Shown one piece after another: positions 1 through 32,329 of a stretch of 32,329 bases of DNA. Source of the stretch: a virus (lineage: Duplodnaviria; Caudoviricetes); the IMG/VR virus record IMGVR_UViG_3300044724_000778, positions 1-32,329 of that record; one strand, given 5' to 3'. The notes below the pieces were generated by a model, which ran no database searches, was not told where the DNA came from, and saw only the letters and a list, made by a program, of their open reading frames with translations. The stretch's first letter is position 1. Each line of letters opens with the position of its first letter. A program made the translations under genes and the position numbers.

Positions 1-859
1 TCTTGTAGTTGCTCAGTTCTTCCTCGTCATAGGTTGGAAGATACTTGATGTCCCACTCACATACATGAGGATACATCTGCTTAAGGTCATAGACATTGTA
101 GTCCATATCATCACGCTCTAAAAGCAATCTTACAATTACATAACGATTTCTGTGGTCGTTTACATCGTTCAGAGTTCTAGGTGTGACGGTCAGGTGGATA
201 GGGCCTGTGGTCATGTCCACAAACTCTACAGTCTCATCCTCCACAATTGCGTAAAACTTGTCTCCTCCATCGTGGAAGCATGTAGAGTACGGTGTACCCA
301 GGACTTTGATGTTCTCTCTCGTATGATGCTGGTGGATGTGTCCCAGGATACTTGTATTAGTAAAATCATCAGGACAAATAGCAAAATCGGCATCGCCAGC
401 ATTATTGAGAGAACCTTCATAGCCAAAATGACCAAAAACAATAGCACCGTCAGGAGACTTAGCCAACTCCTCTTTAATAACCTGCTCATCCTCATAGTGT
501 GGAATGAAATGGTAGTTGCCTACGACAGTAGGTTTCGTAATGACCTTAATGCTGCCCGCAGATGAGAAGACAGCGTTGCGCTCCAATAAACTAAGAATGG
601 TAATACCATCGTCAGCTTTGCTGGCGCTGTCATGATTACCTCGCAAGATGAACACATTTTTCTTTACTCCTTGAAATAGATTTCTTACATCGAGAATACA
701 TTCAGGTGAAGGACTCCGCTTGTCAAAGACATCACCGAGAAATACGACATTATCAGAAGCCACTCCTTGAATGAGATCTCGGATACATTGGATCTGGCAT
801 AGCCGTAGTTCCCTGTTCGTGTTGTGGAAGTGTGTGTCTCCAATTACTAGTGTCCTCAT
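1..859 (-). CDS. Mre11/SbcD-like metallophosphoesterase recombination nuclease (T4 gp47-like), partial, runs off the left edge; missing from the ORF track
   Basis: ATG at 859 overlaps the thyX stop (ATGA). My translation MRTLVIGDTHFHN...VFLGDVFD...ILRGNHD...VFGHFG...ILGHIH...VLGTPYS has the calcineurin-like motifs DxH, GD, GNHD, GH and GHxH. Confidence 0.88.
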   Translation of the reverse strand, partial: MRTLVIGDTHFHNTNRELRLCQIQCIRDLIQGVASDNVVFLGDVFDKRSPSPECILDVRNLFQGVKKNVFILRGNHDSASKADDGITILSLLERNAVFSSAGSIKVITKPTVVGNYHFIPHYEDEQVIKEELAKSPDGAIVFGHFGYEGSLNNAGDADFAICPDDFTNTSILGHIHQHHTRENIKVLGTPYSTCFHDGGDKFYAIVEDETVEFVDMTTGPIHLTVTPRTLNDVNDHRNRYVIVRLLLERDDMDYNVYDLKQMYPHVCEWDIKYLPTYDEEELSNYK

Positions 860-1524
860 ACTAATGCTCTCCAGGCGACTGGGAACAGTTCTGACATGAT
901 ATCGTCGATTGCAAATGCGTAGTGTTGGGTTTCCTCTTGTGCGTTGTTTTCACTACGCTGTAACGCAACGCGAGCAAATGATGCAAGGGATCCAGTCCAG
1001 TACCATTCTGTGTACATGCACTGTGGCAGGATACCCCTTGCAATCTCAGGGGCAAGGCCCTCTATAATAGACACATCATATGCGTCTCTAGCAAGATTGA
1101 CAGCCTGCTTGTAGATGTCGTAGACTCTCTCCTTGCCTTCGATCTCCTTATCACCTGAGCCTTGCTTAATGCTTTTGTCAGGACGCTCACGCCAGTAATT
1201 AGGAGTGTAGAAATCAGGTTCAAAATCAACATAACGGCGCGAGATCTCATTTTCTACCATGCCTACCTTATGCTTGAAGAGTTGAGTCCTCACAAAGATC
1301 GGCGCTTTTATGTGAAATTGAACCTGAGGATGGGCGAATGGGGTCCAGTGGTTATGCTTTGCAAGATAGTTGATGAGCTTCTCATCTTTCTCCGTTAGTT
1401 CCTTGCTCACCTTACTGAAAGAAACTCGCGCAGCATTAACCACTGTAAGATCGGACCCCATCCAATCTATAAGACGGACGAAGCCGTGATCTAAACATTC
1501 GACAGTATAATTTTTATCAATCAT
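856..1524 (-). CDS. thyX: Flavin-dependent thymidylate synthase
   Basis: VVNAARVSF, YLAKHNHWTPF, APIFVRTQLFKHKVG...NEISRRY (variant of the ThyX RHRxxS...SxRY motif), APEIARGILP. Confidence 0.95.
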   Translation of the reverse strand: MIDKNYTVECLDHGFVRLIDWMGSDLTVVNAARVSFSKVSKELTEKDEKLINYLAKHNHWTPFAHPQVQFHIKAPIFVRTQLFKHKVGMVENEISRRYVDFEPDFYTPNYWRERPDKSIKQGSGDKEIEGKERVYDIYKQAVNLARDAYDVSIIEGLAPEIARGILPQCMYTEWYWTGSLASFARVALQRSENNAQEETQHYAFAIDDIMSELFPVAWRALV

Positions 1525-2629
1525 TAAAATACTCCAATAACTCTGTGATGTTTAGGACGGCTCCGTCCTTGTAATGAACCTCTTGACCATCGCCAAATGA
1601 ACGACCTACTTCAGCGTCGATCTTGAGGGGTACTTCAAAGTGGATGTTGAAATCCTTGCGGAGAGTAGGCGTCTCCACCAACTCATTATAGCACACTTCA
1701 AGGCACTCTTGCAAAGAATTCTTCGGGCATGTTATCTCAAGTGAGTCGTGGACAGTAGATACAATCTTAGCTCCCGTTGCTGGTAGAGATTGGCTAAGTC
1801 CCTTGATGCCACAAAGGATGATGTCCGATGCTGCTGACTGGATAGTAAAGTTAAGACCCTGGCGTAGAGCCCTGCGAACAATCTTATCATCCTTAGACCT
1901 GACATTAGGTAGCCTTCGCTTGCGTCCGAAGATAGAGGTAATGTAACCGTCCTCCCTGATCATCTCGTAGGTATTGTTGATATACGATCCGATACCTGGG
2001 AAGACCTCCATGTAAGTGTTGATGATATGCTCTGCTCGGTCTAGTGAAATTCTGTTATTGTTAGCGAGCGTAAAAGCAGTACCACCATATACGATGAGGA
2101 AGGAGGTTGCCTTAGCAATCTGCCGCTCCTCTTTTTGCACCTTCTCAGCGGACTTGTTGAACAAGAGTGAGGCAGAGTAGGTGTGTAGATCGACGCCATC
2201 TTTGAATGCCTTACACATGCGCTCATCTTCTGCTACATGCGCGAGAACTCTAAGTTCCATGCCTGCATAGTCGATAGTAATGAACGCCTGATCCTCAGGT
2301 GCTACAAAGATGCGTCGAATGTTATTGTTAGTATCCCGAGGAAGCGTATGGAATGATACACCCATCGCCTTCTCAGCATTGTAGGAGCCGCAAGAGAGCC
2401 GACCTGTAACTGTGCCATCGAGCTTGTAGTCACAGTAGACCTTGTTACGACCATTGTATTCAATAGCCGTGTGTAAACCCCGAATGTAGGTCTTGTGTAG
2501 CTTCGCTGCCGCACGATAGTCCAACAGCCCAGCGATCCACTCTCTTGCTTGTTCTAGTTCCTCAGTTGAACGCTCTTGCAGAACACTACGAGCGGTCAGC
2601 TTTTCTTGATCTTCTCGTCTTCTTCGCAC
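1517..2629 (-). CDS. polA: Family A DNA polymerase, C-terminal part (end of thumb, palm, fingers); part 3 of a split polymerase
   Basis: LLDYRAAAKLHKTY, GTVTGRLS, motif A DYAGMELRVLAH, motif B RQIAKATSFLIVYG, GYITSIFGRKRRLP, NFTIQSAASD, motif C TVHDS. The GTG start has only a weak SD and the frame is closed by TGA three codons upstream. Confidence 0.95.
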   Translation of the reverse strand: MRRRREDQEKLTARSVLQERSTEELEQAREWIAGLLDYRAAAKLHKTYIRGLHTAIEYNGRNKVYCDYKLDGTVTGRLSCGSYNAEKAMGVSFHTLPRDTNNNIRRIFVAPEDQAFITIDYAGMELRVLAHVAEDERMCKAFKDGVDLHTYSASLLFNKSAEKVQKEERQIAKATSFLIVYGGTAFTLANNNRISLDRAEHIINTYMEVFPGIGSYINNTYEMIREDGYITSIFGRKRRLPNVRSKDDKIVRRALRQGLNFTIQSAASDIILCGIKGLSQSLPATGAKIVSTVHDSLEITCPKNSLQECLEVCYNELVETPTLRKDFNIHFEVPLKIDAEVGRSFGDGQEVHYKDGAVLNITELLEYFND

Positions 2630-3098
2630 GGTCGTTCAACTCATCTGTAATAAAGTCTAGTAGTTCGTCAAGGGTCGCCTTATCCGTTGACGGTTCACCC
2701 TTGCCTGTTCTCTTCGGAGGATATAGTAGGAAGCCCTGCTCGTCAGTATAAAGAATCTCTCGTAAATCCACAGTAGATGCGAAGTTAGCACCACGCTTCA
2801 CTTGCTTATACATAAGAAGCTCGTCCTCCTTAGACATAGACTGCTTGTCAAGACTCTTACCCACAGAGCCTAGCTCCTCTGGTGCTACATGCAGACCCTC
2901 ATACTCCATCTCAGAGAACACAGGTAGCACAGGTGACAGTAGCTTCTCCATCACATGCCAGCAACCTTCATCTTGTAGTAACTCTTCTAGTTTGTGGAAA
3001 AGTCGAAGAGTAAAGTGAGTATCCATAGCGTTGCCATGGAGACAATCGCCCAGCGGAATGTTAGCCCAATCAAAGTTCTTATCATTTACTGTTAGCAT
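2586..3098 (-). CDS. polA: Family A DNA polymerase, middle part (ExoIII helix and N-terminal thumb); part 2 of a split polymerase
   Basis: FDWANIPL...GNAMDTHFTLRLF (ExoIII region), PVFSEMEYEGLHV (PolA 'ME.xG'), NFASTVDLREILY (NxxSxxQL) and TGKGEPSTDKATLDEL (thumb tip). Confidence 0.9.
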   Translation of the reverse strand: MLTVNDKNFDWANIPLGDCLHGNAMDTHFTLRLFHKLEELLQDEGCWHVMEKLLSPVLPVFSEMEYEGLHVAPEELGSVGKSLDKQSMSKEDELLMYKQVKRGANFASTVDLREILYTDEQGFLLYPPKRTGKGEPSTDKATLDELLDFITDELNDRAKKTRRSRKADRS

Positions 3099-4108
3099 TA
3101 GAGTTGATCAATACCTTCTGGGAAGAATAGCTTGACGAGTTCCTTCAAGCTCTTGGGAACATCCTCGTTCCACAGGTGAGCCATCAGCTTAGTATCATAG
3201 ACATTGGTTGGGTAGATTCCAACATTGTGTAGGAATTTCAGGTCGAACTTCGCATTGTGAAACACTTTACGATTGTTCGGGTTCTCTAAGATCTTCTTGA
3301 TAACTTTGAGAATGTAGTCAGTATCCTCCCAAGGAGTATCCTTGTGTAGAAGAGGGATAGCGTAGTTCTTATCCCTGGCAGAGATAGCAATCGTGTTGAG
3401 CTTATCAGTCAGGAAGTTCAGACCTGTGGTCTCAGTATCCACAGCAATATCTTCGTCTGTATCAGACAGCCAAAGGATATGATCTAGATCATCATCGCAC
3501 ATAATAAGTTCGACAGGAATCTTCTCTGCCTTGATGCCTGTGATCACCTTGGCAAGTGCATTCTTAATGTCCTGCTCAAAGATGTATCTGTTCTTAGGTT
3601 CTGTGTGTACAGCGTAAGGGTGAAAGATAGGTACACATACGAACTGGTGATTACCCGTGTCGATATTGAATGCGTTGCCTCTCTTGGTTGTGATACCAGA
3701 CTTCTTAGTCACCATCTTGAACGCAAGGTTTCCACATGCGAACACTAGCTTGGGCTTGACCTTATCAATCGTAGCCCATAGGTGCTGGCGACAAGCGTGA
3801 GTGTCAGCAGTCTTCATCTCTGACTCACGCACAGAAGGACACTTTACGGCAGCAGAGAAGGTAATTCTAGCGTCCCCTGGGAGATCTGATTCCACAAGGA
3901 TACTAGTAAGCGTCTCCACATCTCGGCTGTTAAAAGGATTACTCCTGCCATTATGAAAGACGAAAGAATCAGAAAGAAAAAGGACATCAGCCTCGTCCAG
4001 AGCATCATAATCTTGGATGCAATGGGTTGGCTTGTTCTTTTTGAGTTGGGAACATCCTTGACAGAACTGGTGAATTGGGGCTTCTTCATATAGGTTTGAA
4101 AGTTGCAT
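3098..4108 (-). CDS. Family-4 uracil-DNA-glycosylase-like domain fused to the N-terminal part of a 3'-5' exonuclease; part 1 of a split SPO1-type polymerase
   Basis: CQGC, AVKCP, HACRQHL...KPKLVFACGNLA and IFHPY match family-4 UDG. ExoI AVDTETTGL, ExoII FHNAKFDLKFL and YDTKLMAHL...SLKEL follow. The TAA stop overlaps the next ATG (TAATG). Confidence 0.9.
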   Translation of the reverse strand: MQLSNLYEEAPIHQFCQGCSQLKKNKPTHCIQDYDALDEADVLFLSDSFVFHNGRSNPFNSRDVETLTSILVESDLPGDARITFSAAVKCPSVRESEMKTADTHACRQHLWATIDKVKPKLVFACGNLAFKMVTKKSGITTKRGNAFNIDTGNHQFVCVPIFHPYAVHTEPKNRYIFEQDIKNALAKVITGIKAEKIPVELIMCDDDLDHILWLSDTDEDIAVDTETTGLNFLTDKLNTIAISARDKNYAIPLLHKDTPWEDTDYILKVIKKILENPNNRKVFHNAKFDLKFLHNVGIYPTNVYDTKLMAHLWNEDVPKSLKELVKLFFPEGIDQL

Positions 4109-4118
4109 TGGGGTTTAC

Positions 4119-4129
4119 ACTATAATAGT
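4119..4129. promoter_or_regulatory. Quasi-palindromic ACTATAATAGT; candidate bidirectional -10 element for the divergent polymerase part 1 and gp55-like genes
   Basis: TATAAT on + (4121-4126) and TATTAT on - (4127-4122) within a 26-bp intergenic gap; no correctly spaced -35 seen. Confidence 0.55.
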
Positions 4130-4134
4130 TAAGT

Positions 4135-4485
4135 ATGAGTAGACATTACATAGACAACAAACGCTTCGAGGAGTTAATAGTATTATACCTCCAAGATCGA
4201 AAGACTCACGAAGAAGAATTGTTTTCTATGTTCGACTTGCTTATCTCTAATGTCATGGGTGCATTCAACTTTGATGTTGATCCCGAAGACGCAAAGCAAG
4301 ATTGTTTCGTATTAATATTGAAGACGCTCCAAAATTTCAATCCTGAAAAAGGGAGCGCCTTCAATTTCTTTACCACAGTTATTGTTAATAATCTAAAGTT
4401 GGTTTACACAAAAGATAAAAAGTACGCCGAGAAGATCAAGGCGTTTGAGGAACTGCAAGGGTATCGAGGCCCAACTCAGCCCTGA
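4135..4485 (+). CDS. gp55: T4 gp55-like late-transcription sigma factor
   Basis: HYIDNKRF, EDAKQDCF...LQNFNPEKGSAFNFFTTVI and KDKK resemble gp55-family HYVNN.../FDPEKS.NPFAYFTQII/KEKKQ. Confidence 0.75.
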   Translation: MSRHYIDNKRFEELIVLYLQDRKTHEEELFSMFDLLISNVMGAFNFDVDPEDAKQDCFVLILKTLQNFNPEKGSAFNFFTTVIVNNLKLVYTKDKKYAEKIKAFEELQGYRGPTQP

Positions 4486-5075: not shown

Positions 5076-5085
5076 CTATAATAGT
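5076..5085. promoter_or_regulatory. CTATAATAGT; second candidate bidirectional -10 element
   Basis: Same 10-mer as 4120-4129, again in a short (29-bp) gap between divergent genes. Confidence 0.55.
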
Positions 5086-5101: not shown

Positions 5102-5629
5102 ATGGAAGATAATTACGATTTATCGAAACTCAGGACCAAGCCCAAGCGAAAGAATAGTAGAGCGAAGGGTGCGGCCTTCGAGAACAAAGTCGCCAAAATA
5201 CTCAACGAGAGGTTTGATACAAATGAATTCGCCAGAACACCAGGGTCAGGAGCTTTCGCAACGACACATACGCTACCGAAACATCTACAAATCCAGGGAG
5301 ATCTTATCACTCCTCAAGCATTTGCATACATTATAGAATGCAAGAAGGGTTATAACAACCTCGGCTTCAACTCCATGTTAGATTTTCAATCAAAACTTTG
5401 GGAGTGGATAGGACATATGGAGCGGGACGCGGCGTCAGCAGAAAAGCTACCGATTCTTTTTATGGCCCAGGACAGGCAGCCTATCATATCAATACTTAGG
5501 TATAAAGAAGAAATAATAAACTATACTGATTCATATAGTACATTAACAAGTAAAGAAGGTATAGAGTACATTATGTTATACATGGATGACCTTCTTAAGA
5601 TACATAATCAGTTCTTCTACTTAGACTAG
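5102..5629 (+). CDS. Holliday-junction resolvase-like PD-(D/E)xK nuclease
   Basis: NSRAKGAAFENKVAKIL, FARTPGSGA, GDLI and IIECKKGY form a typical phage Hjc-like resolvase pattern. Confidence 0.8.
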   Translation: MEDNYDLSKLRTKPKRKNSRAKGAAFENKVAKILNERFDTNEFARTPGSGAFATTHTLPKHLQIQGDLITPQAFAYIIECKKGYNNLGFNSMLDFQSKLWEWIGHMERDAASAEKLPILFMAQDRQPIISILRYKEEIINYTDSYSTLTSKEGIEYIMLYMDDLLKIHNQFFYLD

Positions 5630-7858
5630 ATCTAAGTTCTCTTCTGTAGATGGGATGTAGGCGTTAACTGCAACCCTATTCCTCTCATTGTTAAGTTCTA
5701 CTTTCATACCTCCATCAATCCTTAAGCCTGATCTGCCGAAGGTGAATCCTCTCTTACCACTTAAAACCTGTTCGACACTCTTCATCACTTCACCATTTTG
5801 ATTATACACATGGCTTTCATTTGTTCCAGTCTTTGTAGTAACTCCCATAACATTTTCTGAGGTAGAGTCTAAGCCTGCATCAACACCTAGTAGAAGCATG
5901 GCGTGTAACATAGGATCATCTTTATCCATTTCAGACTTACCTCTATCAGCTAGAGACTTTTCAATGATCTTCATCTGCATCTCCTTCTCCATATAAGTAG
6001 AGAATCTAGACAAAGACCTAGCATCAATAGTTCCATCAGGGCCTCTTAATGATTTTAAATACATAGGATCATTAAGAGGCATGTCTATATCATAAGTTCT
6101 CATCATGAGTTCCAGATGATTTGTTATAGCTTGTTGTGCTTGCTTAGGTGTTTTACCAATAACATCTAACTGATCATTAGCCACTATGTCCCTACAGAAA
6201 TTGGCCGCACCTGTTAGTTTAGTTAACTCAGTCCTTGCAGCATCAAACTGTTGTGTGGACATACCTGCATTTACCATGCGTTGTCTAACCACAGACTCAT
6301 GTTTACCCAATCTTACACCACTTCCATAGCGTTCACCCAGTCCTACGAAACCATAAGTAGACCCTGCCTTAGTCTCTGTACCACCTGAGTAAGTCTTTAA
6401 AGATACACCAGCAGCATAATAATCACCTCCTGCTGTACCTCCATTAGAAATTATGGTCTTCTGTGTAGTCTTATCAAGGTCCTCAAATTTGACTTTTTGG
6501 ACGAATGGTTTTAGAGCAGGATCAGTAGGAGGTTGTGACCATACAAGCATGTTGTCAGCCTTAAAGCCTTTACCTACATCACCTTCTCCTACTCTAGACA
6601 CGAAGTCTGGTTTGAATCTTCTGTAGAACTCAGTCCTAGGAAGAACATGGCCTGTAATTATCTTGGTAACCACATCCTGTATTTCTTTAGGTGTTCCTTT
6701 AGTAAGACCTATCTGCTCCATGGATGCTACTAGTTCCGCATCAGCTTCACTCATCATACCACGGTTAAGTTGTAGAACCTTTACAATACTATCCTTGTAT
6801 TGTTTCGCCATGTTCTCAATGATTGGAGCAGCCTTATCTATCTCACCTCTGGCGATATAGTGAGCAGCTATTTCTAATATCTCAGAGGTTTCTTTAACAG
6901 CATTTGAATAGTTGAAGCTGTCCTTAGCGAAATCAAAACTATCAATTGCTAAAGTCTCTCCATCTTCTAGTAGTTCCTTGTTTTGTTTCTCGAACTTCTT
7001 AGCCTCAGTCTCATACTGATTTATCAATTCAGTAAGAGCGTGCTTTTCACTTGGCATGATACACACTCCAGCCAAGGATCGACCATCAACCTTTAGGAAC
7101 ACCTGACCCTTTTTATTCTTGTATAGAAGCTGCTTCATTTTCCTAAGGTCTTCCAGGATGTTTTCAGGCTTACGAGCACCTCGTTTTAGTTGATCTGTTA
7201 GAGTCGCTATCCTCTCATACTGTTTCATAGCCCTCTTTACTTGAGATTCACTAGGAGGTTCTCGTTCAAATACTTTTACATCATCTCCACCTTCATCCGC
7301 AGCTTGCTCAACAAATAACATGTTACGCTCTAACATTCTTCTAGACATACTTCTAATACTATTGTTGGCGTTAGAGAAGAACTGTCCATGAAGTTTCGCT
7401 TCACGGGTATTCGTGTCAAGAACATTCTCTAGTCCAAAGAGCTTTGTAAACAATGACAGTACCGCGTCACCTAATCCTGGAAATCCCTGGTTCAACTCGT
7501 CAACAGTTTCCGTCTGTCTCTGCTGCTTCTCCATCTCCTGCCTTTCGGCTTTGGACATGACAGGTTGTTTCGCGGTAGTTCCTGCTCCTGACAAGAACGC
7601 GGCTAGATCGTCGTAGCCTTCAGACCCTGGACCGTCTACTTTATTTGCTCTAGCGTTAGGCTCATCTCTTTGAAAGCTTATAGTTCCTCGGGTAGTCTTC
7701 CATATCTTACCCTTTCCACCTCCAGCACCATCGAGTATACCGGGGGTCTTTATACTGTCACCAGCAAGACCTATAGCCTGTTCAGGTGTCATAGCTTGTG
7801 GAGCTTGTTCGTGCAGACTGCGATAGCTTTCAAGTAGTTGTATGGCAAACTTCTTCAT
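5621..7858 (-). CDS. Large hypothetical protein, probable internal virion protein; possible PD-(D/E)xK-like motif
   Basis: 745 aa. N-terminus LLESYRSLHE resembles gp21-cleavable leaders; contains KADNMLV...GVSLK. Confidence 0.6.
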   Translation of the reverse strand: MKKFAIQLLESYRSLHEQAPQAMTPEQAIGLAGDSIKTPGILDGAGGGKGKIWKTTRGTISFQRDEPNARANKVDGPGSEGYDDLAAFLSGAGTTAKQPVMSKAERQEMEKQQRQTETVDELNQGFPGLGDAVLSLFTKLFGLENVLDTNTREAKLHGQFFSNANNSIRSMSRRMLERNMLFVEQAADEGGDDVKVFEREPPSESQVKRAMKQYERIATLTDQLKRGARKPENILEDLRKMKQLLYKNKKGQVFLKVDGRSLAGVCIMPSEKHALTELINQYETEAKKFEKQNKELLEDGETLAIDSFDFAKDSFNYSNAVKETSEILEIAAHYIARGEIDKAAPIIENMAKQYKDSIVKVLQLNRGMMSEADAELVASMEQIGLTKGTPKEIQDVVTKIITGHVLPRTEFYRRFKPDFVSRVGEGDVGKGFKADNMLVWSQPPTDPALKPFVQKVKFEDLDKTTQKTIISNGGTAGGDYYAAGVSLKTYSGGTETKAGSTYGFVGLGERYGSGVRLGKHESVVRQRMVNAGMSTQQFDAARTELTKLTGAANFCRDIVANDQLDVIGKTPKQAQQAITNHLELMMRTYDIDMPLNDPMYLKSLRGPDGTIDARSLSRFSTYMEKEMQMKIIEKSLADRGKSEMDKDDPMLHAMLLLGVDAGLDSTSENVMGVTTKTGTNESHVYNQNGEVMKSVEQVLSGKRGFTFGRSGLRIDGGMKVELNNERNRVAVNAYIPSTEENLDLV

Positions 7859-18710: not shown

Positions 18711-18977
18711 TTAGGCTCCTGCAAATACATCAGTGCTAGGATTAGCTGTTACAGGAGCGGCATGTGGAGAAACCCCATGTCCTGTGATTGCATCTCCTGG
18801 TAAAGACACCTTAGATCCTTCTGCAAAAACCGTTGATGATCCAGGCCCTATTATCGAAGCTCCTGCGCTATCTACCTCTATCCTAGTAATTCCCTTACCG
18901 TTAACAAACACGGTAGAGCTACCCGTGTTTGTATCACCACAGGTAGCTGCGTCTCCTTGTCTTTCTATTCCAGGCAT
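18711..18977 (-). CDS. PAAR-family spike-tip protein (gp5.4-like)
   Basis: RQGDAATCG...GSSTVFVNGKGITR...GSSTVFAEG...GD...H...H...STDVFAG. Confidence 0.9.
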   Translation of the reverse strand: MPGIERQGDAATCGDTNTGSSTVFVNGKGITRIEVDSAGASIIGPGSSTVFAEGSKVSLPGDAITGHGVSPHAAPVTANPSTDVFAGA

Positions 18978-21900
18978 CAGGGGAAAGGCTCCGGTGTTTC
19001 AGTTTCGTAGTCTCCTTCTAGCTTGGTTGTTCTAGTAGGAGGAGCTATGTAATTATTTATCGTGGCATCCTTCGTCGTTGTAGGAACAAATGATACTTTA
19101 GGGAATAGTTCCTTCACGCTTTCTTTAGTAGCCAATCTATTTAATGATAGTGAAGATCTAAGTTTTTTGTAATCAAGAGCTTCCGTTATAAGAAGTTTCC
19201 TATCTGAAATAGACATCTTACCGAGGATTGTGGGCCAAGGAACTGTGCTTGTTCGAGCGTCAATAAACTCTCCAGATGTCTTTGAGTTCTCTAGAGCAGT
19301 CAGTAATGTTCTAACAGGGCTTGCTTTTCTAGGTAGAACCTCGGCATCATTCCTGTAAGGTCTTACCGTGTTTTTTATTTTTGTTGAATTGAATTTGAAA
19401 GCCACTTGGCTGTCTGTTTGAGCAGTAGGAACAGCACCTTCACCATAACCTACAACCTCAGTATCAAGAATAGGATTCTCTAATCCTTCTCTCCGCTTTA
19501 TAAGATTTCTCTTGAAGATCATTCTTCTTTCAGATAGAGACACGAATGTAGACCTAGAGAACCCAGTTTGAAGGTCCTCTCTATCTGTAGGAACTATGGC
19601 TATGGTCCAAGGTATCCTTCTTGGGAAGATAGGAACCTCGTCATTGTAACCAACGAAAGCATCCAAAGAGAAGTCCTTGAAAGTGGCTCTTAAAGTATTA
19701 CTATCTTCTAAGTGATCCAAGAAAGGATCCTCGTTACTTACATAGAAAGTATTAAATGGGAAGGGGTTGTAGGACATCCAATCATCCACATCCTCATAAT
19801 TCATGACCTCATAAGTAGCTTTCGATACCCTAATAAGTTCATGGGGTCTCTCCAGATCCTCTAGACTCTCTGTATTAAGCTTGAGAACATAAACCTCAGG
19901 TCTAGAGGCAGAAAGATCAGCGTCCTTCTCTACAAGATTAGCTTCATCACTACTAACATCTAAAACGATATCGTAGTCTACATTGAGCATACCGAATATC
20001 TTTTCAATATCGTTGAAGTTTAATGTAGATACTCTATCTCTATCAAACTGAAGAGGTATCTGTAATCCTCCTGTAATAGCAGTTTGATATACATCTCCTG
20101 GGCTTATGGTAAGTGTTGATAGGCTACCGTCTGATAATGAAAGATCGAACTTGTCATTCTGATCTATGAAGACTCTCTCCTGATCTCCGTTACTCAACAC
20201 AACCAACAAGTGTTTATCTACATCAGGTGCTACAGTTTTCCATAGGCGCATCTTCTCTCGCTCTATATCAGAACCGTAATTAGCATAGTTCAACGAGACT
20301 TTGTTTTCAAATGCGTGCGTGACTGCGCCAGACTCAGAAATCTTACCAGTGTAAAGAGGGACATCAGGGTCCTCAAAATCGAACAGAACTTTTCTTATTT
20401 CTGGTATAGATATATCATTTACAGTTCCTTCGATGATATGTCTATGGATGGAAGATAGGATATCATTCCTAACCTTCTTTCCTTGTCTAGTATTTTTAAT
20501 CTGAGATAGTCTTCTAGAAATATCAGATACAAGAGAGTTCTCTATATTATCGTAAGTAAGTTCACCAAAAGGAAGGTCTGTAGCTTGTGTCGTTCTTTGT
20601 GATCTTATATCTGCTATAGCTTCTAAAGCATAGTGAACTCTTTCCTTAAATAAGTCTGTCCTGTAACTCTTATTCTTTTCAGGTATGAATTTTCTACTCC
20701 TTCTATAGAAGTTATTATTAAGGTCTCTGTCCTCAATGTTTAGATTAACATTCTTTGTATACTCTCTCCTAATCTGACCCTCTGCTGTATTTACAAACCT
20801 ACCGTCATTAGGAGGTGGAGTATTTCCAGACTGACCTCCTCCTCCAGGACCTCCTCCTCCACCAGGATCACAGAAATTACCTCCCCCAGCATTCCAAGGG
20901 TCTGCTCCGTAGTCTATCTCGTTAGCATCTATACAATCATCACAAATAGGAACAGCCGCAGTTGCGCCTCCACCATCAATTATGAACCTATATGCCGTAG
21001 GCTGTATAAAGTTACCGTTGGCGTCAGAAACTTTTATAGTAAATAAAGGAGGAGTTGGATTAGTAGGTTCATTGATTGGACAAGATACGAAGGTTACTCT
21101 CATCTTATTCGTACCTGGAACAGGTTCAACACATTCAACTGCTCCAAAAGTGGAGTCTGTTATATCAATCGTATCGAAAAGTATTGGAAGGCTGTTATAA
21201 TTTTCATCAAACCCTTCTACATCAATATAACTAGTTCCTTCGTCACAACATACTCTTGGTTCTCTTGAAGGAACGACATTCATAAACTGTCCTGGATTTC
21301 CTCCAGCAATTCCTGCATCAGGATCTCTCATAACAACAACAGTTTGAGGCCAGTAAGGGGCTTCTTGTGAAAATTCAAGATAGGTTATAGGATTAGGATC
21401 TACAACAGGATCACAGTCAGTACAAGGAAGAACAGTATATCTGTCACCGTTTACAATCTTTCCTCCAGTTACATAATCATAAACATCATCACAGGTAAGG
21501 TTCGTACCAGTAAGTAAGAAGAACTCAACCCATTGATTAACAGGTCTTATATCTATCTCACAATAAGCGTTTGAGGTTCCTACATTTCTACATACATTTA
21601 ATTCACACTCCTCTGGAGGTGGAGGAGGTGGAGGACAGTTATTACAGTCTTGCTCTTGGCTGTAACGGTTATTACCTACGACAGTTGGGAGGATACCATT
21701 AATATCCTCACACTCACAATTTCCTGCTGGACAAGTAACTCCTAAAATCCCTGCCCACTCATTAGCAGTTTTTGTAACATTGAGTTGACACTCTGCATTA
21801 ACTTGATCTTGGTAGTTAATACAGATGGTAACATCACACTCAGGAGAAGGCTCATTACAGTTTTGATTACAAGTGGATGCACCACGGTAGTATATTTTTC

Positions 21901-22795
21901 CTGTTGCAATTTCTGCTACACCTGCCGCAGCAGCATTCTTAATATCATTACAAACAATTCTGCCTCCAGGCCCCGAACCTCCTCCAGGAAAGCTTAATCC
22001 AAGAGAAAGTAACCATTGATCTATGGGCCTAGTTTCACGCTCACATTCGTAAATAGTCTCATTACAAGTCCATAAACTGCATCCTGCATCAGGTGTTGCA
22101 GGTCCTTGAGGTCCTTGACCTGGAGTGGTTGGAGTAGGTGGATCTCCAGGGTCATCTTCAACACAACACTCACCTGAGTTTATACAGTCCTGAGCCGTAT
22201 TATAATAATTCCCCCCTGGTCCTCCTGGTGGATTAGTTACATAGTAAGAAGCACAGTCGTCGTAGCAAGTTCCTGGGGGCAAGGCTGGGCTACACTTAAA
22301 TATCCCAGTCACATGATTAGGAACAGTTTGGCATCCGTTTCCTGGGCAAACTACCGTTGTATTGTCAGGGCAGAGTCCTGCATCGCAATCAAATGTTGTA
22401 CATTCCTCAGGAGCCATAGCTTGTGATGCAAATGGGGTTCCGTTAGGAATCAATGACATTATAAACTCTCCAACAACAGTTCCGTCTGGAACTACGGGAG
22501 GGAATACATAAGTATTATTAGGACCTGTACAGTCATCATCATCAGCAAGTCCCGCTCCTTTGAGATCATCAAAGGTTATACATACCTGTTCTATTGTCGT
22601 TGTACCTATTGAGGTTTGTGTGCTCCTAGTGCAGTAAAAATAACAAGCTTCGCTATAATTACACTCACCTCCACCGTCATCAACGGGTTCGTCAGGCCCT
22701 CCTCCATCAAAATCACCACAACAGTCCGGTGGAGTATTATCTCCTCCAGTTAAATAGTTGTGTGCTCTGAGTATACAATTGAGGAATACCGACAT
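18977..22795 (-). CDS. 1272-aa probable virion protein with Cys/Pro/Gly-rich N-terminal half and Cys-free C-terminal half
   Basis: Long ORF translationally coupled to PAAR (TGATG); three internal Cys repeats. Confidence 0.7.
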   Translation of the reverse strand: MSVFLNCILRAHNYLTGGDNTPPDCCGDFDGGGPDEPVDDGGGECNYSEACYFYCTRSTQTSIGTTTIEQVCITFDDLKGAGLADDDDCTGPNNTYVFPPVVPDGTVVGEFIMSLIPNGTPFASQAMAPEECTTFDCDAGLCPDNTTVVCPGNGCQTVPNHVTGIFKCSPALPPGTCYDDCASYYVTNPPGGPGGNYYNTAQDCINSGECCVEDDPGDPPTPTTPGQGPQGPATPDAGCSLWTCNETIYECERETRPIDQWLLSLGLSFPGGGSGPGGRIVCNDIKNAAAAGVAEIATGKIYYRGASTCNQNCNEPSPECDVTICINYQDQVNAECQLNVTKTANEWAGILGVTCPAGNCECEDINGILPTVVGNNRYSQEQDCNNCPPPPPPPEECELNVCRNVGTSNAYCEIDIRPVNQWVEFFLLTGTNLTCDDVYDYVTGGKIVNGDRYTVLPCTDCDPVVDPNPITYLEFSQEAPYWPQTVVVMRDPDAGIAGGNPGQFMNVVPSREPRVCCDEGTSYIDVEGFDENYNSLPILFDTIDITDSTFGAVECVEPVPGTNKMRVTFVSCPINEPTNPTPPLFTIKVSDANGNFIQPTAYRFIIDGGGATAAVPICDDCIDANEIDYGADPWNAGGGNFCDPGGGGGPGGGGQSGNTPPPNDGRFVNTAEGQIRREYTKNVNLNIEDRDLNNNFYRRSRKFIPEKNKSYRTDLFKERVHYALEAIADIRSQRTTQATDLPFGELTYDNIENSLVSDISRRLSQIKNTRQGKKVRNDILSSIHRHIIEGTVNDISIPEIRKVLFDFEDPDVPLYTGKISESGAVTHAFENKVSLNYANYGSDIEREKMRLWKTVAPDVDKHLLVVLSNGDQERVFIDQNDKFDLSLSDGSLSTLTISPGDVYQTAITGGLQIPLQFDRDRVSTLNFNDIEKIFGMLNVDYDIVLDVSSDEANLVEKDADLSASRPEVYVLKLNTESLEDLERPHELIRVSKATYEVMNYEDVDDWMSYNPFPFNTFYVSNEDPFLDHLEDSNTLRATFKDFSLDAFVGYNDEVPIFPRRIPWTIAIVPTDREDLQTGFSRSTFVSLSERRMIFKRNLIKRREGLENPILDTEVVGYGEGAVPTAQTDSQVAFKFNSTKIKNTVRPYRNDAEVLPRKASPVRTLLTALENSKTSGEFIDARTSTVPWPTILGKMSISDRKLLITEALDYKKLRSSLSLNRLATKESVKELFPKVSFVPTTTKDATINNYIAPPTRTTKLEGDYETETPEPFP

Positions 22796-22796
22796 T

Positions 22797-25238
22797 TTAC
22801 TTTAGATAAATAACTTCTCTATTATCAGTATCAGGTCTATAGTAAGAAGGGTAACCCATGATAGTGTACTTAACAGTTGGATAAGTACAAGCAATAACTG
22901 GTGATGCTGGTGACGAACTATTCATAGAATAGCTCTCAGGGTTATTTTGATCCCAGTCCAAGATACTGTGAGTTACAGCAAAGTTTGGATAAGTAGACCC
23001 TGCGTTTCTGTACCAATCATTTCCTACACTAAACATGTTCTTGTTGTAACCACCTGATCCAGGGTTATTATCAGCCCAGGGGTGATTGATTCCAGGCTGT
23101 GTCTCAGTTCTACTAGAGAAGAATGAGTTGAAGGCAGCCATAACTGTGAAGGAGTTACCTTCTTTAGACACTGTTAATCCTGCGTATTGTCTAGGCCAGA
23201 AGTCGTCAGAGTCACTAGAGTTTCTATGATACCAATCGCTTACAGTTGTTGGGACACAGTTTACAAACTCTACGATAACATCATAGTATGACATCCAAGG
23301 AACATTACCAGTGTCAACTTGAATCTTCTTCCTACAGAAAGCTAGGGCAGCACCCGCACCATCTCTCTTATACGCTCCTAATGCGTCAATTGAATCATGG
23401 AAACTTTCGTATATAGATGCATTGTTTAAAGTAACACCTGTCTCACTTCCCTGTTGTCTAGCAAGCCAAGTTCTATCATTTCTATAAGATCCAGCACTGT
23501 TTTTTCCTAAAACCCATGGAGCTACTTCCCAGTCAGGAAGTTCTCTTAAGGTTGTACCCCCTGGAACATGACCTTGGTTTATAAGCCACGAATATCTTGC
23601 CTCAGCATTTGAAGGGTTCTGTATTATATTTTGCCAATCAGGATGGCCCATAGCCATTTTGAGTAGAGCACCTTCAACACCGTACTTAAGACCTCCAAAT
23701 ATATAACCAGAACCTACAACTCTAGGTACAGTTGGAATCTCTGGGACACTAGGAATTAGTTCAATAACCTCTGCCCTAACCTTTCTTATCGTATCGCCTA
23801 GCTCCTCCTTTCCAACAGCAGGGTTAGCAAAAGATAGAGGAGGGTTAGCAGCAGCAATACCCGCTCTCTCATTGTAAGCAAGCTCAGTTGTTCTTAGGAA
23901 AGGTCTGATATCAAGAATGTCGGCTGCCGTTATGGCAGTTGCATCTTTCTTTACAATGATATAAGCAAGAGGTAGAACAGACTGACCGATAAGGGCTAGG
24001 TTATTAGTCTCTAGATCAATCTGTAAAAGAGGAGCAATGTTAAGAAGGTCATCAGGAGATGGGAAGTTACCATAGTAACCCTCCATTCCTGCTACATCTT
24101 GTATTTGATCAGCAACCGTAGCAGCTATTTGGTTATAACCATACTGATAATCCTCGCTATCGACAAACGAGAAGTAGTTTGCACCTATATTCTTACCAGC
24201 GGTCCACTCGGTAGAATCACCAATCCAAGAAGTACCATCAGTATAAGTATCAAAAACTCCAAAGTTAGGTCCATTACCCTTAAGACCTATAGCGCCTGCT
24301 CCTTTTACAATACCTAATTGAGGTTCTGTTATCATTGCAGGAGCAGCGCCGTCCTTTTTAAGGATTGTCGTGCTAGAAGCATCAATAGGATGAGAGTAAA
24401 CAAACAGTAAGTCGATTCTGTAACTAGGCTCGAAGTCTGTTTGATTCATAAAATCCGCTGCATCGAATGGAGCAACTTCTATACTTAAAGTCTCTGGGAC
24501 ATTTACGACTGCTGTTCTGGCAGTACCTCCCCACCATTTGATGAAGTCTGAGAATAGCTGCTGTAAATCTGATCTTGTATTACCTATAATCAGAGATGCT
24601 GTTCCTGGGTGATCCGAAGTCTTTTCTTGTCTGATGGTGGTCTTCTTAATTAAAGGAAGGTTGTCCATACCAGCCAAGGCATTGTTGGAGTAAGTTCCGT
24701 ATCGACCAGTCCAGGATGTTATGAATCCTTGATAAGGAGTACAGACATGGTGAAGAACTGCATCGTATAGTCCGTTGTTAAGTATCAGATTTCCAGTAAC
24801 TTCACCCGCAAGAGTCTTTATAAAGTTTTCAGATACTTTAAAATCGAAATCCCCCATTCCGGGGTTAGTGACACTAGGAAGATCGCTTTGAAGATAAATA
24901 ATATCAATAAGCTTTTTCTTATAAGCATCGTTGATTCTAGCGGTATACCTTCCTGGCTTTACGAATGCCTTGAAAGAAGTATCATCAGCGAAAGGTCTTA
25001 GCTCATTAATCTGATTTCTTTCAATGCCAGATAGAAGACCTACTGAACCTCCACCAATCTGATCCCGTAGCCATAGAACATTCTTCTCTAGTTGCTCAAG
25101 AGGAATGTTATCTACCTGCCAGTAGTAAGGATCATTAGACTTGAAGTATCTAATTGGTTGTGTGAATTGATAAGCACTCTCCTTCCATTGTGTAGGAGGT
25201 TGAGGTACTTGTCCTGGTCCGTAGTTATTGTGTGCCAT
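22797..25238 (-). CDS. Baseplate/tail-associated structural protein (813 aa)
   Basis: N-terminal WQVDNIPLEQLE helix shared with the upstream gene; RIDLLFVY and ILDIRPFL are common in phage baseplate/fibre proteins. Confidence 0.6.
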   Translation of the reverse strand: MAHNNYGPGQVPQPPTQWKESAYQFTQPIRYFKSNDPYYWQVDNIPLEQLEKNVLWLRDQIGGGSVGLLSGIERNQINELRPFADDTSFKAFVKPGRYTARINDAYKKKLIDIIYLQSDLPSVTNPGMGDFDFKVSENFIKTLAGEVTGNLILNNGLYDAVLHHVCTPYQGFITSWTGRYGTYSNNALAGMDNLPLIKKTTIRQEKTSDHPGTASLIIGNTRSDLQQLFSDFIKWWGGTARTAVVNVPETLSIEVAPFDAADFMNQTDFEPSYRIDLLFVYSHPIDASSTTILKKDGAAPAMITEPQLGIVKGAGAIGLKGNGPNFGVFDTYTDGTSWIGDSTEWTAGKNIGANYFSFVDSEDYQYGYNQIAATVADQIQDVAGMEGYYGNFPSPDDLLNIAPLLQIDLETNNLALIGQSVLPLAYIIVKKDATAITAADILDIRPFLRTTELAYNERAGIAAANPPLSFANPAVGKEELGDTIRKVRAEVIELIPSVPEIPTVPRVVGSGYIFGGLKYGVEGALLKMAMGHPDWQNIIQNPSNAEARYSWLINQGHVPGGTTLRELPDWEVAPWVLGKNSAGSYRNDRTWLARQQGSETGVTLNNASIYESFHDSIDALGAYKRDGAGAALAFCRKKIQVDTGNVPWMSYYDVIVEFVNCVPTTVSDWYHRNSSDSDDFWPRQYAGLTVSKEGNSFTVMAAFNSFFSSRTETQPGINHPWADNNPGSGGYNKNMFSVGNDWYRNAGSTYPNFAVTHSILDWDQNNPESYSMNSSSPASPVIACTYPTVKYTIMGYPSYYRPDTDNREVIYLK

Positions 25239-28200
25239 TAGTTACTCCTATCGAAATCGAATATATTTGCTGATCTAAATCCTTTACCCGTACCGTCTGT
25301 AGTGTTTGTTCTACCTTCTCCCTCTTGGGTCATGGTTGCTCTGTAGATAGATAGAAGAGGTGGTCTTCCTCCAACTTTATGAGAGCAGTGTTTCGCATTA
25401 GCAAAGGTATTACTTGCCGATTCATCTATCCTAACCCTGTTTACAAAGGAAGGATCAACGAAGTCCTTGACATGGTAATAGCCTGAGAAATCCCATTTAT
25501 CAGCTAAGTTAGGACCTAGCTTCTCTTCATTTCTAACTGAACCCGAAACTAAAAGCAAGTCAGCCGCTATCAATGTAGCAATATCATCAGAGACTGAACT
25601 GCAAGGCCCTGAAGCATGATAACCTTGAGCAAATGCTTGAGCAACAACATTAGACTCGTTGTCATCTATTGCAGTACCCGAAACATGGAACAAGAGATTC
25701 GCTGCGGGATTGACAGAGTAGTATATTCTAAAGGGTCCTCTGTTGTAAGGACCACTTTGACCATACATTCCATACCATCTCCAGGCAGTAATTGCACCTC
25801 CACCGACTTCTCCATGATTTCTACTTGGAACATACAGTTCTCCACCACCTGAGTAATCAATCGCTAGGTCACCGTTATTCACTAAATACTGGTACTTAGC
25901 AACACCTATGGCGTTATCAGAAAGCAAACCCTTAGTAGGAGTATCTGAGTTTTCTACTAAGGGAACCCACTCACCATAACTATCTAAAATCGAAGCATTA
26001 CCATAAGTATCATCGTACTCGTAATGAGTTCTAGCTGGCTCATATGAAGTGTCAGTCCATGAAGCAGAAGTACCGTAATTCTGTCCTGTGAATCCACTTC
26101 TACCCATGGCAGAAGTGTTAGCTGTCCCTTGACCAGTATACCAAGTAGTTCCAGGTTTTTGCCATACACCTCTAGGACCGTAGTAATTGGCCTGTGAAGG
26201 ATATAATCCAGACACGGAGCAATAAGCTGCGTTCATATGAGAACCATCACCTATGTTCCATATTCTTAAGTTATAGCACCCTGCATTATTATCAGGACGG
26301 CTAGGATCAAAGTATTCTTTGTCAGCGTTTACTGGGCCGGGAATAAAGTGAACATTAGTAACATCAATCCTACTTCCGTTTAATACCCTAGTGCAGAATC
26401 CTCCAGTAGAAAGCTTTTGTTGGAATTCAGTTTCTGTTATAGCAGTATAATCTTCCTCTAAGAAACTTGCAAATGCTCCTTTGTAATCTCCTATAGCGGT
26501 ATGAGCACCAAAGGTTCCATAAGTTATAGGATCTGACTCTGAGTTAGTTTTGTTGGAATAATTATCAGTAAGAGAGAAAGTGCTACTTACTTCATTATCG
26601 GTAGTGTCAGAATTAGGGAGCATTATCATGCATCCACTAGAGAAGTATGACGATACATTGTACTGAAAAACATTTCCTGTAATATCATCACCCGTTCCGT
26701 AGTCCGCAGAGGAAACTGATGAACCTATGTCAGCTACATCCCAAGTAGAGTGATAGTCTCCAAGGTCCCTCATACTAATGTAAGACCCGTGGTCAGCCAC
26801 AAGGCAAGATCTAGTTGCATGAAGCTCAACACTAGTATGGTTTTCTTTAGCAGACAAGCTCCACTCGTTTATACCTAAAGCGCCCTCATGGTCTGAGTGA
26901 GGCATAAACCTTACTGATGAGTTATTATCGGCAAGTGCATCAACGGAGAATTGTCCTATAAAGGTTGGACCCATGAAGTTGATATTTGAGTTGTTGTTTG
27001 CGAAAACTCCAACACACCTTCTTTGCAGTGAAGGCTCATCGGGACCTACTAGTTGTGTAGCTCCATAGGATGTTCCATGGAAATCAACAGAAGACCCTTT
27101 ATCAGCATGAAGTAAACATCCTTTTACGGTTCTCTGCGTGTAAACAGTTGGCTGGAACACTGCGGCAGTTGTGTTAGCTCTAGGAGCATACATTCTTGCA
27201 TTACAGAACTGAGCGTAAGAGTTTGTAAGGACTATCGCCTGAGCTAAATTGGTTCCTTCTACCGTACTAGCATCAGTTCCTAAGTGGTTTGAGAAATGCA
27301 TTAACGGAGTAGTATCAACATAGTTGGTGTCCACATCATCTAGTTTAAAGGTAGAAGATTCCATCTTTAAATGCTGCCCGTTAGATGCGAAGGACATTTG
27401 ATAACTCCATGGAGTGTGAGCAAAATCTAGGGTTCTTCTAGAGTATTGGTTTAGGGTTGCTTGTCTTGCTTTCTCCACGGAATACTTAACATGGGAGTTT
27501 ATTAGGTGAAGTCCTTCATTCTGATTTGCTTCACAGCATATACCGTCTATGTAAAGTGTGGAGTTAGTTGCTTCAATTCCTTTGGTATTACTGTAAGCAG
27601 TTATCAAGCCTTTTACACTTATCTCTGAATTTACCGCCTCTATACCTTTACCATTCATGAAGAAGTTTAGAACGGTTGGAGAAGGATGACCAACAATTGT
27701 TTCAGCGAAACCGTCACCTCCAGTAAGGACTGAGTTGTGTAAGTAAGCTCCTACATCATTTCCTTGAATGTTGAAGAAGTATTCAGACCCTGATACATAA
27801 GTGTCTGTTACTACATTTAGGGTTGAGTTGTATGCCTTTAATCCGTAGGACTGCCCTCTTGTAGTTCCGCTTTCAACCTTATAGTTTCTACTAGATGCAA
27901 ATCCTCTTCTCAGATCTACATTAGAGTTGTTTACTAGAAGACCTACACCGCCGCCTCTCATAACTCCGAAGTTTTCAAGAGTTACTCGACTACTGTTATC
28001 AATAACTGCTCCTTCTAAATAGTCATGACTGTAAGGTGTGTAAGGAGTAGCTGTTTGATCCTCTGCTGGATCTACGATAAATCCTCTAATATAGATTGGA
28101 CCATCACAGTTCTTGATACTAAGTCTTCTTAAGAAGTTACCTGTGGTAAATCCGTGGAAACAAGTAGTTTGATTACCTTTGGCACCAGTTCTTCTAACCA

Positions 28201-29020
28201 AAGAGCCATCGTGTAAATTAATAGAAGATCCGTCAGCTACATTAGTGCTATAGTCATTAACATATGTGTTTACATGTTTATCACCTATAGGAAAGAATCT
28301 CACCGCATTAGCAGAAGTTCTTTGCAAACTCATTACGGAATCTAGCAAGAAATTAGAAACCATAGCATCAGTATAGAATCCCTGTCTAACTTGCCCAAAT
28401 CCTCTAGCCATCCCGTCACTTAAAGTCCCTCCGATCTCAACATTATTAGATGAGGCTAAAAGGCAAGATGTATCGTTTATGATATTTTCCATATCAATTG
28501 AGCTAACTTGATATGGAACATTGAACTCAACTCCGTCTACAGTATAAACAAGGGCAGAGAACTGGGATACCGTAGTAGCATCATTAGGTGCTCCGATAAT
28601 CCTTACACCTGTTCTGTTTACAATCTCTAAGGCACCGTTTTGAGTACACTTAATATTATCAAGGCAAAGGTCACCTAGGTTTCCAGAAGCACAGACCTCG
28701 ATCAGCACAGGCATGTGAAGAACCTCAGGTAAAGCCTTGATAGCAGAGGATACATCTAGGAAGAAGTTGCAGCTTACATCTAGATGGCTAGGAATGGAAG
28801 AAGATACGGCTAGAACCATGCCAGGGAGTGAAGAGGTAGGCCATCCTAGCTTCTCCCAGAGGTAGTCGGTGCGCTCCTCTAGATCATATAATGGAAGGTT
28901 ATCCTGCTCCCAGTTGTAGAAAGAGCTAGTGTCGTGTTTTGTCACGAAAGGGTTCCAGTAGTCACTTAGTAGGACTCCTGCACTCACCGTATACAGATCG
29001 TTAATATCAAATCCAGCCAT
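25238..29020 (-). CDS. Tail spike/fibre-like protein with parallel beta-helix repeats (~1260 aa; start moved to ATG 29020)
   Basis: Recurrent G-hydrophobic-x-x-x-N-S coils (GLLVNNS, GLKAYNS, GAYLHNS, GIEAVNS, GIEATNS, GLHLINS); ATG lies just after the upstream stop. Confidence 0.7.
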   Translation of the reverse strand: MAGFDINDLYTVSAGVLLSDYWNPFVTKHDTSSFYNWEQDNLPLYDLEERTDYLWEKLGWPTSSLPGMVLAVSSSIPSHLDVSCNFFLDVSSAIKALPEVLHMPVLIEVCASGNLGDLCLDNIKCTQNGALEIVNRTGVRIIGAPNDATTVSQFSALVYTVDGVEFNVPYQVSSIDMENIINDTSCLLASSNNVEIGGTLSDGMARGFGQVRQGFYTDAMVSNFLLDSVMSLQRTSANAVRFFPIGDKHVNTYVNDYSTNVADGSSINLHDGSLVRRTGAKGNQTTCFHGFTTGNFLRRLSIKNCDGPIYIRGFIVDPAEDQTATPYTPYSHDYLEGAVIDNSSRVTLENFGVMRGGGVGLLVNNSNVDLRRGFASSRNYKVESGTTRGQSYGLKAYNSTLNVVTDTYVSGSEYFFNIQGNDVGAYLHNSVLTGGDGFAETIVGHPSPTVLNFFMNGKGIEAVNSEISVKGLITAYSNTKGIEATNSTLYIDGICCEANQNEGLHLINSHVKYSVEKARQATLNQYSRRTLDFAHTPWSYQMSFASNGQHLKMESSTFKLDDVDTNYVDTTPLMHFSNHLGTDASTVEGTNLAQAIVLTNSYAQFCNARMYAPRANTTAAVFQPTVYTQRTVKGCLLHADKGSSVDFHGTSYGATQLVGPDEPSLQRRCVGVFANNNSNINFMGPTFIGQFSVDALADNNSSVRFMPHSDHEGALGINEWSLSAKENHTSVELHATRSCLVADHGSYISMRDLGDYHSTWDVADIGSSVSSADYGTGDDITGNVFQYNVSSYFSSGCMIMLPNSDTTDNEVSSTFSLTDNYSNKTNSESDPITYGTFGAHTAIGDYKGAFASFLEEDYTAITETEFQQKLSTGGFCTRVLNGSRIDVTNVHFIPGPVNADKEYFDPSRPDNNAGCYNLRIWNIGDGSHMNAAYCSVSGLYPSQANYYGPRGVWQKPGTTWYTGQGTANTSAMGRSGFTGQNYGTSASWTDTSYEPARTHYEYDDTYGNASILDSYGEWVPLVENSDTPTKGLLSDNAIGVAKYQYLVNNGDLAIDYSGGGELYVPSRNHGEVGGGAITAWRWYGMYGQSGPYNRGPFRIYYSVNPAANLLFHVSGTAIDDNESNVVAQAFAQGYHASGPCSSVSDDIATLIAADLLLVSGSVRNEEKLGPNLADKWDFSGYYHVKDFVDPSFVNRVRIDESASNTFANAKHCSHKVGGRPPLLSIYRATMTQEGEGRTNTTDGTGKGFRSANIFDFDRSN

Positions 29021-29021
29021 G

Positions 29022-32193: not shown

Positions 32194-32329
32194 AAGAACT
32201 TCAGCTTCCAAACTAGTTTAATGTTATCGTGATGAGCTACTCCAGCGTCACTACCGTTATCTCTAGATACTACAATATTGTCATTGAATGTTTTTTTGGC
32301 TATCAGTTTGTATACAGCGTCTTTTACAT
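32190..32329 (-). CDS. C-terminal end of an upstream structural gene (partial)
   Basis: Open frame VKDAVYKLIAKKTFNDNIVVSRDNGSDAGVAHHDNIKLVWKLKFL*; ends like the anchor-domain paralogs. Confidence 0.65.
   Translation of the reverse strand, partial: VKDAVYKLIAKKTFNDNIVVSRDNGSDAGVAHHDNIKLVWKLKFL

Follow-up and report, generated by a model that had tools for sequence, protein, structure and literature searches.

Are three consecutive genes that look like pieces of one family A DNA polymerase (PolA) the fragments of a broken gene, the parts of a recoded protein, or the genes of three separate chains? The question is raised by IMG/VR record IMGVR_UViG_3300044724_000778 (Caudoviricetes), a linear virus record of 32,329 nt, 28% complete by CheckV, which was analysed over its whole length (the window). 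Family A polymerases are the textbook single-chain polymerases, usually with polymerase and exonuclease on one polypeptide; this is not the case here, where these parts are distributed over three open reading frames (ORFs) of the minus strand, named genes A, B and C. The phage of the window encodes a uracil-DNA glycosylase (UDG)-exonuclease-PolA as three genes, and this arrangement is real and lineage-wide.

Three genes and two junctions

Gene A (4108-3098, minus strand; 336 aa) codes for a UDG-like domain followed by the exonuclease motifs ExoI and ExoII. Gene B (3098-2586, minus strand; 170 aa), whose product begins MLT, carries the ExoIII helix (G22-N-A-M-D26), the connector into the palm and the thumb's first half, which includes the T-x-x-G-x-P-S loop; it ends in an extra C-terminal helix. 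Gene C (2629-1517, minus strand; 370 aa) has a GTG start at 2629, no other start codon being available in its open frame upstream of the conserved part, and encodes about 30 added N-terminal residues, the second half of the thumb, the palm and the fingers. The phrog_17 profile was covered in succession by A (497-784), B (794-928) and C (926-1241), in agreement with the first-pass annotation of this DNA, which had described three collinear ORFs with these limits. In Pfam searches A matched UDG (E 9e-9, above the cut-off) and DNA_pol_A_exo1 (E 9e-21), C matched DNA_pol_A (59-380, E 5e-78, 263 bits against a cut-off of 34), and B gave a weak match to DNA_pol_A (6-70, E 0.003) below the cut-off. 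A profile of B aligned to positions 158-293 of the chain of the Klenow fragment structure 8oo6 (E 8e-12), that is, from a point shortly before the ExoIII helix to the middle of the thumb.

Junction 1 (3096..3100, minus strand) is a TAATG stop/start overlap with no spare sequence, located in a variable loop before the ExoIII helix; the same style of coupling recurs at position 25238 of the window. At junction 2 (2586..2629, minus strand), which falls in a variable loop between thumb helices, B and C share 44 nt and C is read in the +1 frame. Both overlaps had been described at first pass and were confirmed by the sequence. The two cut sites correspond to loops of variable length and sequence in single-chain relatives, and the loop of cut 2 is continuous and length-variable in relatives with two genes (A followed by a fused B+C). 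The new ends at cut 2 exceed this continuous loop, B having gained its C-terminal helix and C its N-terminal residues, and among relatives the position of the C start relative to the B stop ranges from 44 nt upstream to 16 nt downstream. Cut 1 divides the exonuclease site, with three acids on A and the fourth on B. No Pfam match to intein or endonuclease families was obtained on A, B or C, and Rfam returned 0 matches in the window and seven loci with inserted DNA (eight sources), consistent with the earlier observation that no intron, intein or homing endonuclease lies between the parts.

Two scans of viral contigs with queries of the three-gene type, taking the best 80 of 196 and the best 80 of 206 relatives, gave 158 loci (numbered here with the prefix L). 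These contained 91 distinct complete B genes, a count that includes near-identical strains, with A in view for 87. At cut 1 the genes were fused in 0 of 87 cases, overlapped by 1 nt in 50, were more than 200 nt apart in 34 and were otherwise arranged in 3. At cut 2 there were 0 fusions among 91, and the frame offset was +1 in 69, -1 in 20 and 0 in 2, the last two being L040, with an extra frameshift inside B, and L104, with a gene between B and C. The breakpoints first read from the window alone thus recur in all distinct relatives, down to about 40% identity; in L002, whose proteins are 99% identical to those of the window at a synonymous divergence (dS) of 0.12-0.24, the cuts are the same. 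The extra frameshift of L040 (4575-5002) breaks B in this locus alone and represents an error or a mutant.

Inserts at cut 1 reach 2.4 kb, and the stop of A and the start of B are retained in the interrupted loci. Opposite-strand ORFs were found there in L033 (595-3005), L036 (3481-4461), L040 (3015-4552) and L051 (4209-4487); they are small and basic, share recurring N-terminal motifs and apparently form a paralogous family, with no Pfam match for the two tested. In L104 (2356-6136) both cuts are occupied by passengers, cut 1 by a gene for a 2OG-Fe(II) oxygenase and cut 2 by a DUF6445 gene, and each of them overlaps the stop or start of a neighbour. Among six insert proteins checked, two belonged to a Pfam family, neither of them an endonuclease.

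The ratio of nonsynonymous to synonymous divergence (dN/dS) was 0.00-0.14 in the 43 computable of 48 gene pairs, which means purifying selection on all three genes, A being no less constrained than B or C. The first-pass annotation had named continuous ORFs in close relatives and relaxed selection as signs against its reading; neither was seen, the nearest single-chain UDG-exonuclease-polymerase proteins being about 30% identical to A and dN/dS not exceeding 0.14.

Active sites and predicted structures

The metal-binding acids of A (D224, E226, D289), B (D26) and C (D120, D295) were invariant in 41 of 41 aligned relatives. Polymerase motifs A (D120), B (K173, F177, Y181) and C (H294-D295) are complete in gene product C, all these residues being equally invariant, and the B3 position is occupied by Phe (F177). 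The four acidic ligands of a DEDDy exonuclease in ExoI, ExoII and ExoIII are all kept, but on two chains, and the ExoIII tyrosine is replaced by Gly: B G22, four residues before the Asp, aligns to Klenow Tyr497. All three-gene (85 of 85) and all two-gene sequences (49 of 49) have this Gly, as do 105 of 112 representatives (the other seven unaligned), and the Tyr was present in 7 of 13 single-chain proteins (the other six unaligned); by these alignments the change dates back to cut 1. The alternative of a DEDDh-type His ahead of ExoIII was rejected, that His not being conserved. Klenow Tyr497 is described as having a secondary, substrate-placing role (PMC9629493), because of which editing may survive the change from Tyr to Gly. 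The earlier statement that the catalytic aspartates are intact holds, but two substitutions had been overlooked, the one in ExoIII and another in the UDG-like domain.

In that domain, UDG motif A aligns as S46-D47 (LFLSD) in place of GE, and A86 stands where an Asn precedes the VVKC motif; F59, H163-P164 (the His-Pro motif) and four Cys are kept. In UDGs, the Asn, the Phe and the Cys have functional roles. A family-4 UDG fold at the N-terminus, ahead of exonuclease and polymerase, was supported by Pfam, solved-structure and fold matches, the best solved match being a Sulfolobus family-4 UDG (E 2e-14). Judged by these motifs, the glycosylase of A is likely altered or inactive, and the domain is probably structural or of altered specificity. 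In the A proteins of two-gene relatives, the N-terminal Cys pair was absent or the protein truncated in 11 of 12 inspected, and gene A of the sister group (L160-L222) has a UDG-like domain without the cysteines that the group of the window keeps.

Models of A and B were built with 41-row alignments. That of A had a predicted local distance difference test (pLDDT) score of 84.7, with confidence dropping in the last 26 residues, and its top Foldseek match was the UDG-PolA of phiLo (9qhs, E 5e-11). B modelled alone showed defined helices and no overall fold (pLDDT 76, predicted template modelling score 0.32); Foldseek gave nothing for it at E 0.001, and the weaker rows were PolA at a root-mean-square deviation of about 15 Å. 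The behaviour of B and of the A tail fits, weakly, what may be expected of halves of a shared core or of an obligate subunit. A three-chain prediction scored 0.85, and a control in which A and B were kept and C was replaced scored 0.68, within the 0.20 margin; halves of split genes tend to score in such predictions by their likeness to solved structures, and the result was not used for or against binding.

History of the cuts and assembly of the chains

A search of 1.84 billion representatives with the B profile gave 2,380 matches, of which 150 were considered and the top 123 newly listed ones examined. Among the matches listed there were at least 81 stand-alone B homologues of 155-185 aa at the level of 50%-identity clusters, with an N-terminus ML in 79 and MLT in 64, and 10 longer proteins in which an N-terminal B continues into C; among the same matches, none with B in the interior of a longer chain scored better than E 7e-14. 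An earlier search for longer forms of B, which gave 21 matches among 7,999 scored candidates, all cellular and of Pol I type with E 3e-10 or weaker, had missed the existing B+C fusions and is no evidence of absence.

A third scan with B+C fusions as queries (best 80 of 546 relatives) was added to the two above. The 238 loci with a C match contained 142 distinct B regions, 86 of them with three genes, 47 with two (A and B+C) and nine with A out of view. A was fused to B in 0 of the 133 distinct loci with A in view and was upstream in all 133. The two-gene loci define a sister group in which the thumb is continuous. A tree of the polymerase part was calculated from 89 rows (71 that remained when 220 locus sequences were thinned at 85%, six two-gene representatives and 12 single-chain proteins), and all 77 split rows fell on one side of a branch with SH-aLRT support of 100, the 12 single-chain rows on the other. 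Since the sister group has two genes, the simplest reading suggested by the tree is that the exonuclease was cut first and the thumb later.

Two sets of loci depart from this pattern. In L159 (3501-5192), with the same gene neighbourhood as the window, B and C are in one 563-aa ORF in which both junction extensions are joined by a long linker, possibly a re-fusion. L222, L225 and L226 (about 3940-3975) belong to the sister group, which otherwise has two genes, yet they have three, with an ATGA overlap; their thumb cut may be a second origin or the product of recombination. Against profiles of the main clade, the L222 junction scored low (B tail -1.6 bits, C head 10.5). The tree and these scores hint at two origins for the thumb cut, which we do not claim: in the approximately unbiased (AU) test a single origin gave p 0.08 and was not rejected, for a group chosen after the tree had been seen.

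The best explanation of these data is that the three proteins, translated separately, assemble into one heterotrimeric replicative polymerase; we regard this as very probable, and it is from the genes that we infer assembly, activity and replicative role. Translation of A, B and C would be coupled in the window by the stop/start overlaps; such coupling is evidently not required, because many relatives have genes in between. A and B would pack together to complete the proofreading site, and B and C to build the thumb, with C carrying the polymerase site, both contacts being required by the known PolA fold. In a single-chain ancestor, the first cut would have fallen in the loop that precedes the ExoIII helix, giving the two-gene form that is still common, and the second in the thumb loop, where both new ends would have gained helical extensions.

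Several points weigh against this explanation. The Gly found throughout at ExoIII means that proofreading may be weak or may work differently. A second polymerase may be encoded elsewhere, since the record is 28% complete. As to the history, the branches joining the three-gene rows at their base have support of 83-85, so that the order of the cuts is moderately supported; L222 is three-gene and yet stands among two-gene rows (support 96), and L159, with B and C fused, stands among three-gene rows on a long branch. The outgroup of the tree is distant, with long branches, and each scan of the collection took in its best 80 relatives only.

A looser partnership, in which B and C make up the working polymerase and A is exchangeable or largely structural with little proofreading, is unlikely. 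It draws on the replacement of Tyr by Gly in every aligned sequence of the split lineage, on the greater age and more frequent interruption of cut 1, on an AT-rich, promoter-like motif ending TAG-NN-ATG, seen by eye 2 nt before the start of B in 25 of the 34 loci interrupted at cut 1, and on the CCPols, in which most of the exonuclease is missing and three of its helices remain (PMC10201439), but it does not sit well with four exonuclease acids invariant across two chains, with an A gene as constrained as B and C and always upstream, or with a residue whose role in Klenow is secondary. The preferred explanation can be extended by supposing that the new, almost invariant MLT start of B docks into A and occupies the space vacated by the tyrosine, that editing occurs only in the A-B complex, that lineages with a promoter for B and C tune fidelity through the supply of A, and that the thumb loop represents another hot spot, with two cuts and one rejoining in its past; as a whole this extension is speculative and rather doubtful.

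The remaining explanations deny that there are three lasting chains. Synthesis of one long polypeptide, with programmed frameshifting or ribosomal bypass at each junction, might be suspected from the overlapping frames of the window, and the first-pass annotation had offered a recoded single protein beside separate chains, but against it stand offsets of +1, -1 and 0 at cut 2, spacers of up to 2.4 kb at cut 1, some with opposite-strand ORFs, whole unrelated genes in both gaps of L104 and a B that starts with ML in nearly all divergent homologues; it is highly improbable and already refuted at the level of the lineage, whereas separate chains are strongly supported at the level of the genes, their physical assembly being likely. 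Rejoining of the pieces by RNA splicing or split inteins is no more credible: junction 1 does often take up inserted DNA, as intron sites do, but the window and 50 of 87 relatives have no intervening sequence there, the stop of A and the start of B persist where DNA is inserted, the inserts examined are ordinary or unknown genes, and the Pfam and Rfam searches gave no such element. Least credible of all are assembly errors or a decaying pseudogene. Errors or mutants do occur in the collection, as L040 illustrates, but the same cuts recur across the 91 distinct relatives without exception, from L002 to contigs at 40-60% identity, under the constraint measured above, and this conservation has already refuted the idea. 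Assembly error, frameshifting and splicing are together excluded by the lack of fusions, the varying offset of B and C, and the other DNA or genes in the gaps.

Genomic context and known split polymerases

The virion genes of the window (head, protease, sheath, tube) are T4-like, and genes for a resolvase, ThyX and an SbcD-like nuclease are also present. The gene for ThyX, a flavin-dependent thymidylate synthase (856..1524, minus strand; Pfam Thy1, E 6e-43), overlaps the end of C, and that for the SbcD/gp47-like nuclease (2..859, minus strand; phrog_100, E 6e-31) runs off the window. Divergent from A is a gene resembling late sigma factors (4135..4485, plus strand), with two weak matches (phrog_234, E 5e-4; Sigma70_r2, E 2e-4), which is in the same place in L104 and L159. 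Five long ORFs of 745-1272 aa (5621-7858, 18977-22795, 22797-25238, 25238-29044 and 29635-32211) had no Pfam or PHROG match and by position probably encode virion proteins. A family A polymerase thus accompanies T4-like head and tail genes and a late-sigma-like gene; T4-like phages usually carry the family B enzyme gp43.

Between the divergent starts of gene A and the sigma-like gene lies the near-palindromic CTATAATAG (4120..4128), a candidate promoter element. The pattern CTATWATAG occurs between both divergent gene pairs of the window (4120-4128 and 5076-5084), 3-20 nt from the start codons, and also at 1062-1070; these three matches compare with 0.58 expected, and 3 of 100 shuffles were as high. 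The motif seen before B in interrupted loci is a longer AT-rich form. Elements of this type are candidate two-way promoters that would give leaderless messages.

Among 50,697 records of cultured phages, the best match of C was 33% identical and B had one weak match; N4-like phages were not among the top 30 phage records matched by C. The sole match in a genome collection, L240, is a 130,604-bp contig in a record titled Prochlorococcus sp. and agrees in length and range with the viral contig L137; it is a weak host lead, and the contig need not come from an infecting phage.

Among the top matches in the literature searched, with supplements and most subscription papers outside it, neither a PolA in three genes nor one divided within its exonuclease was seen, the split polymerases described there being in two pieces, and the available text of PMC11348598, PMC4611503 and PMC9123017 does not mention a three-gene arrangement; further members of the lineage may be contained in the sequence tables of PMC10201439 or PMC11348598. 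Single-chain UDG-PolAs are known from SPO1/SP-10, from the SP15-like YerA41 and phiLo, and from N4-like cluster 17 (PMC10201439, PMC13697223). They have a family-4 UDG, a 3'-5' exonuclease and a polymerase in the same order as here, but in one chain in all. Structures of such enzymes were solved by Missoury et al. (PMC13697223), in whose main text the word 'split' occurs 0 times. Enzymes of the SP15-like type carry large inserts, and their UDG motifs are active ones (LLVGE and LNHP in phiLo), in contrast to the LFLSD of the window, and the UDG-PolA of N4-like cluster 17, whose UDG lacks a helix and a hairpin, clusters with the N4 polymerase.

Polymerases of other families are also found in pieces. 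Two-gene family B enzymes include gp43A/B of T4-like Aeromonas and Acinetobacter phages, PolB of Methanothermobacter and the enzyme of RM378 (PMC3061061), as well as the DNA polymerase of PhiKZ, whose N and C parts form a stable, active 1:1 complex of solved structure (PMC13648687); a two-piece PolC is described in jumbo phages (PMC7824862). As here, the family B enzymes have natural cuts inside a domain and separately made subunits, with genes from 2 bp to kilobases apart, but there are two pieces and the cuts are in the fingers or palm, not in the exonuclease site and thumb. The CCPol of Staphylococcus aureus mobile elements is a PolA chain that starts late in the exonuclease domain (PMC10201439) and keeps the last exonuclease helices, like B+C; it has no nearby gene for the missing part and is partnered by the MP protein, whereas here the missing part is upstream and conserved.

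The closest parallel is the PolA of cyanophages like the T7-like S-SBP1, a two-gene split into exonuclease and polymerase that Czernecki et al. (2023, PMC10201439) describe as the first seen for a PolA. Both cases involve gene fission of a family A enzyme into adjacent overlapping genes with predicted reassembly. The S-SBP1-like enzyme is T7-like, with a single cut at the border of exonuclease and polymerase and a Tyr at B3; the window has three genes with both cuts inside domains, a divided exonuclease site, F177 at B3 and T4-like virion genes. The PolA fold thus tolerates two cuts within domains, one of them through the proofreading site, over long evolutionary time, and its natural split points are marked for the engineering of split or conditional PolAs. 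With one-, two- and three-gene states all extant, the stepwise fission of a gene and the emergence of new interfaces can be tested. The phage group is diverse (the stand-alone B clusters counted above) and has likely been miscounted in surveys of PolA, since B falls below the Pfam cut-off and resembles a hypothetical protein. What is new over the known split polymerases is the divided proofreading site, the extant intermediates and the linked change in the active site.

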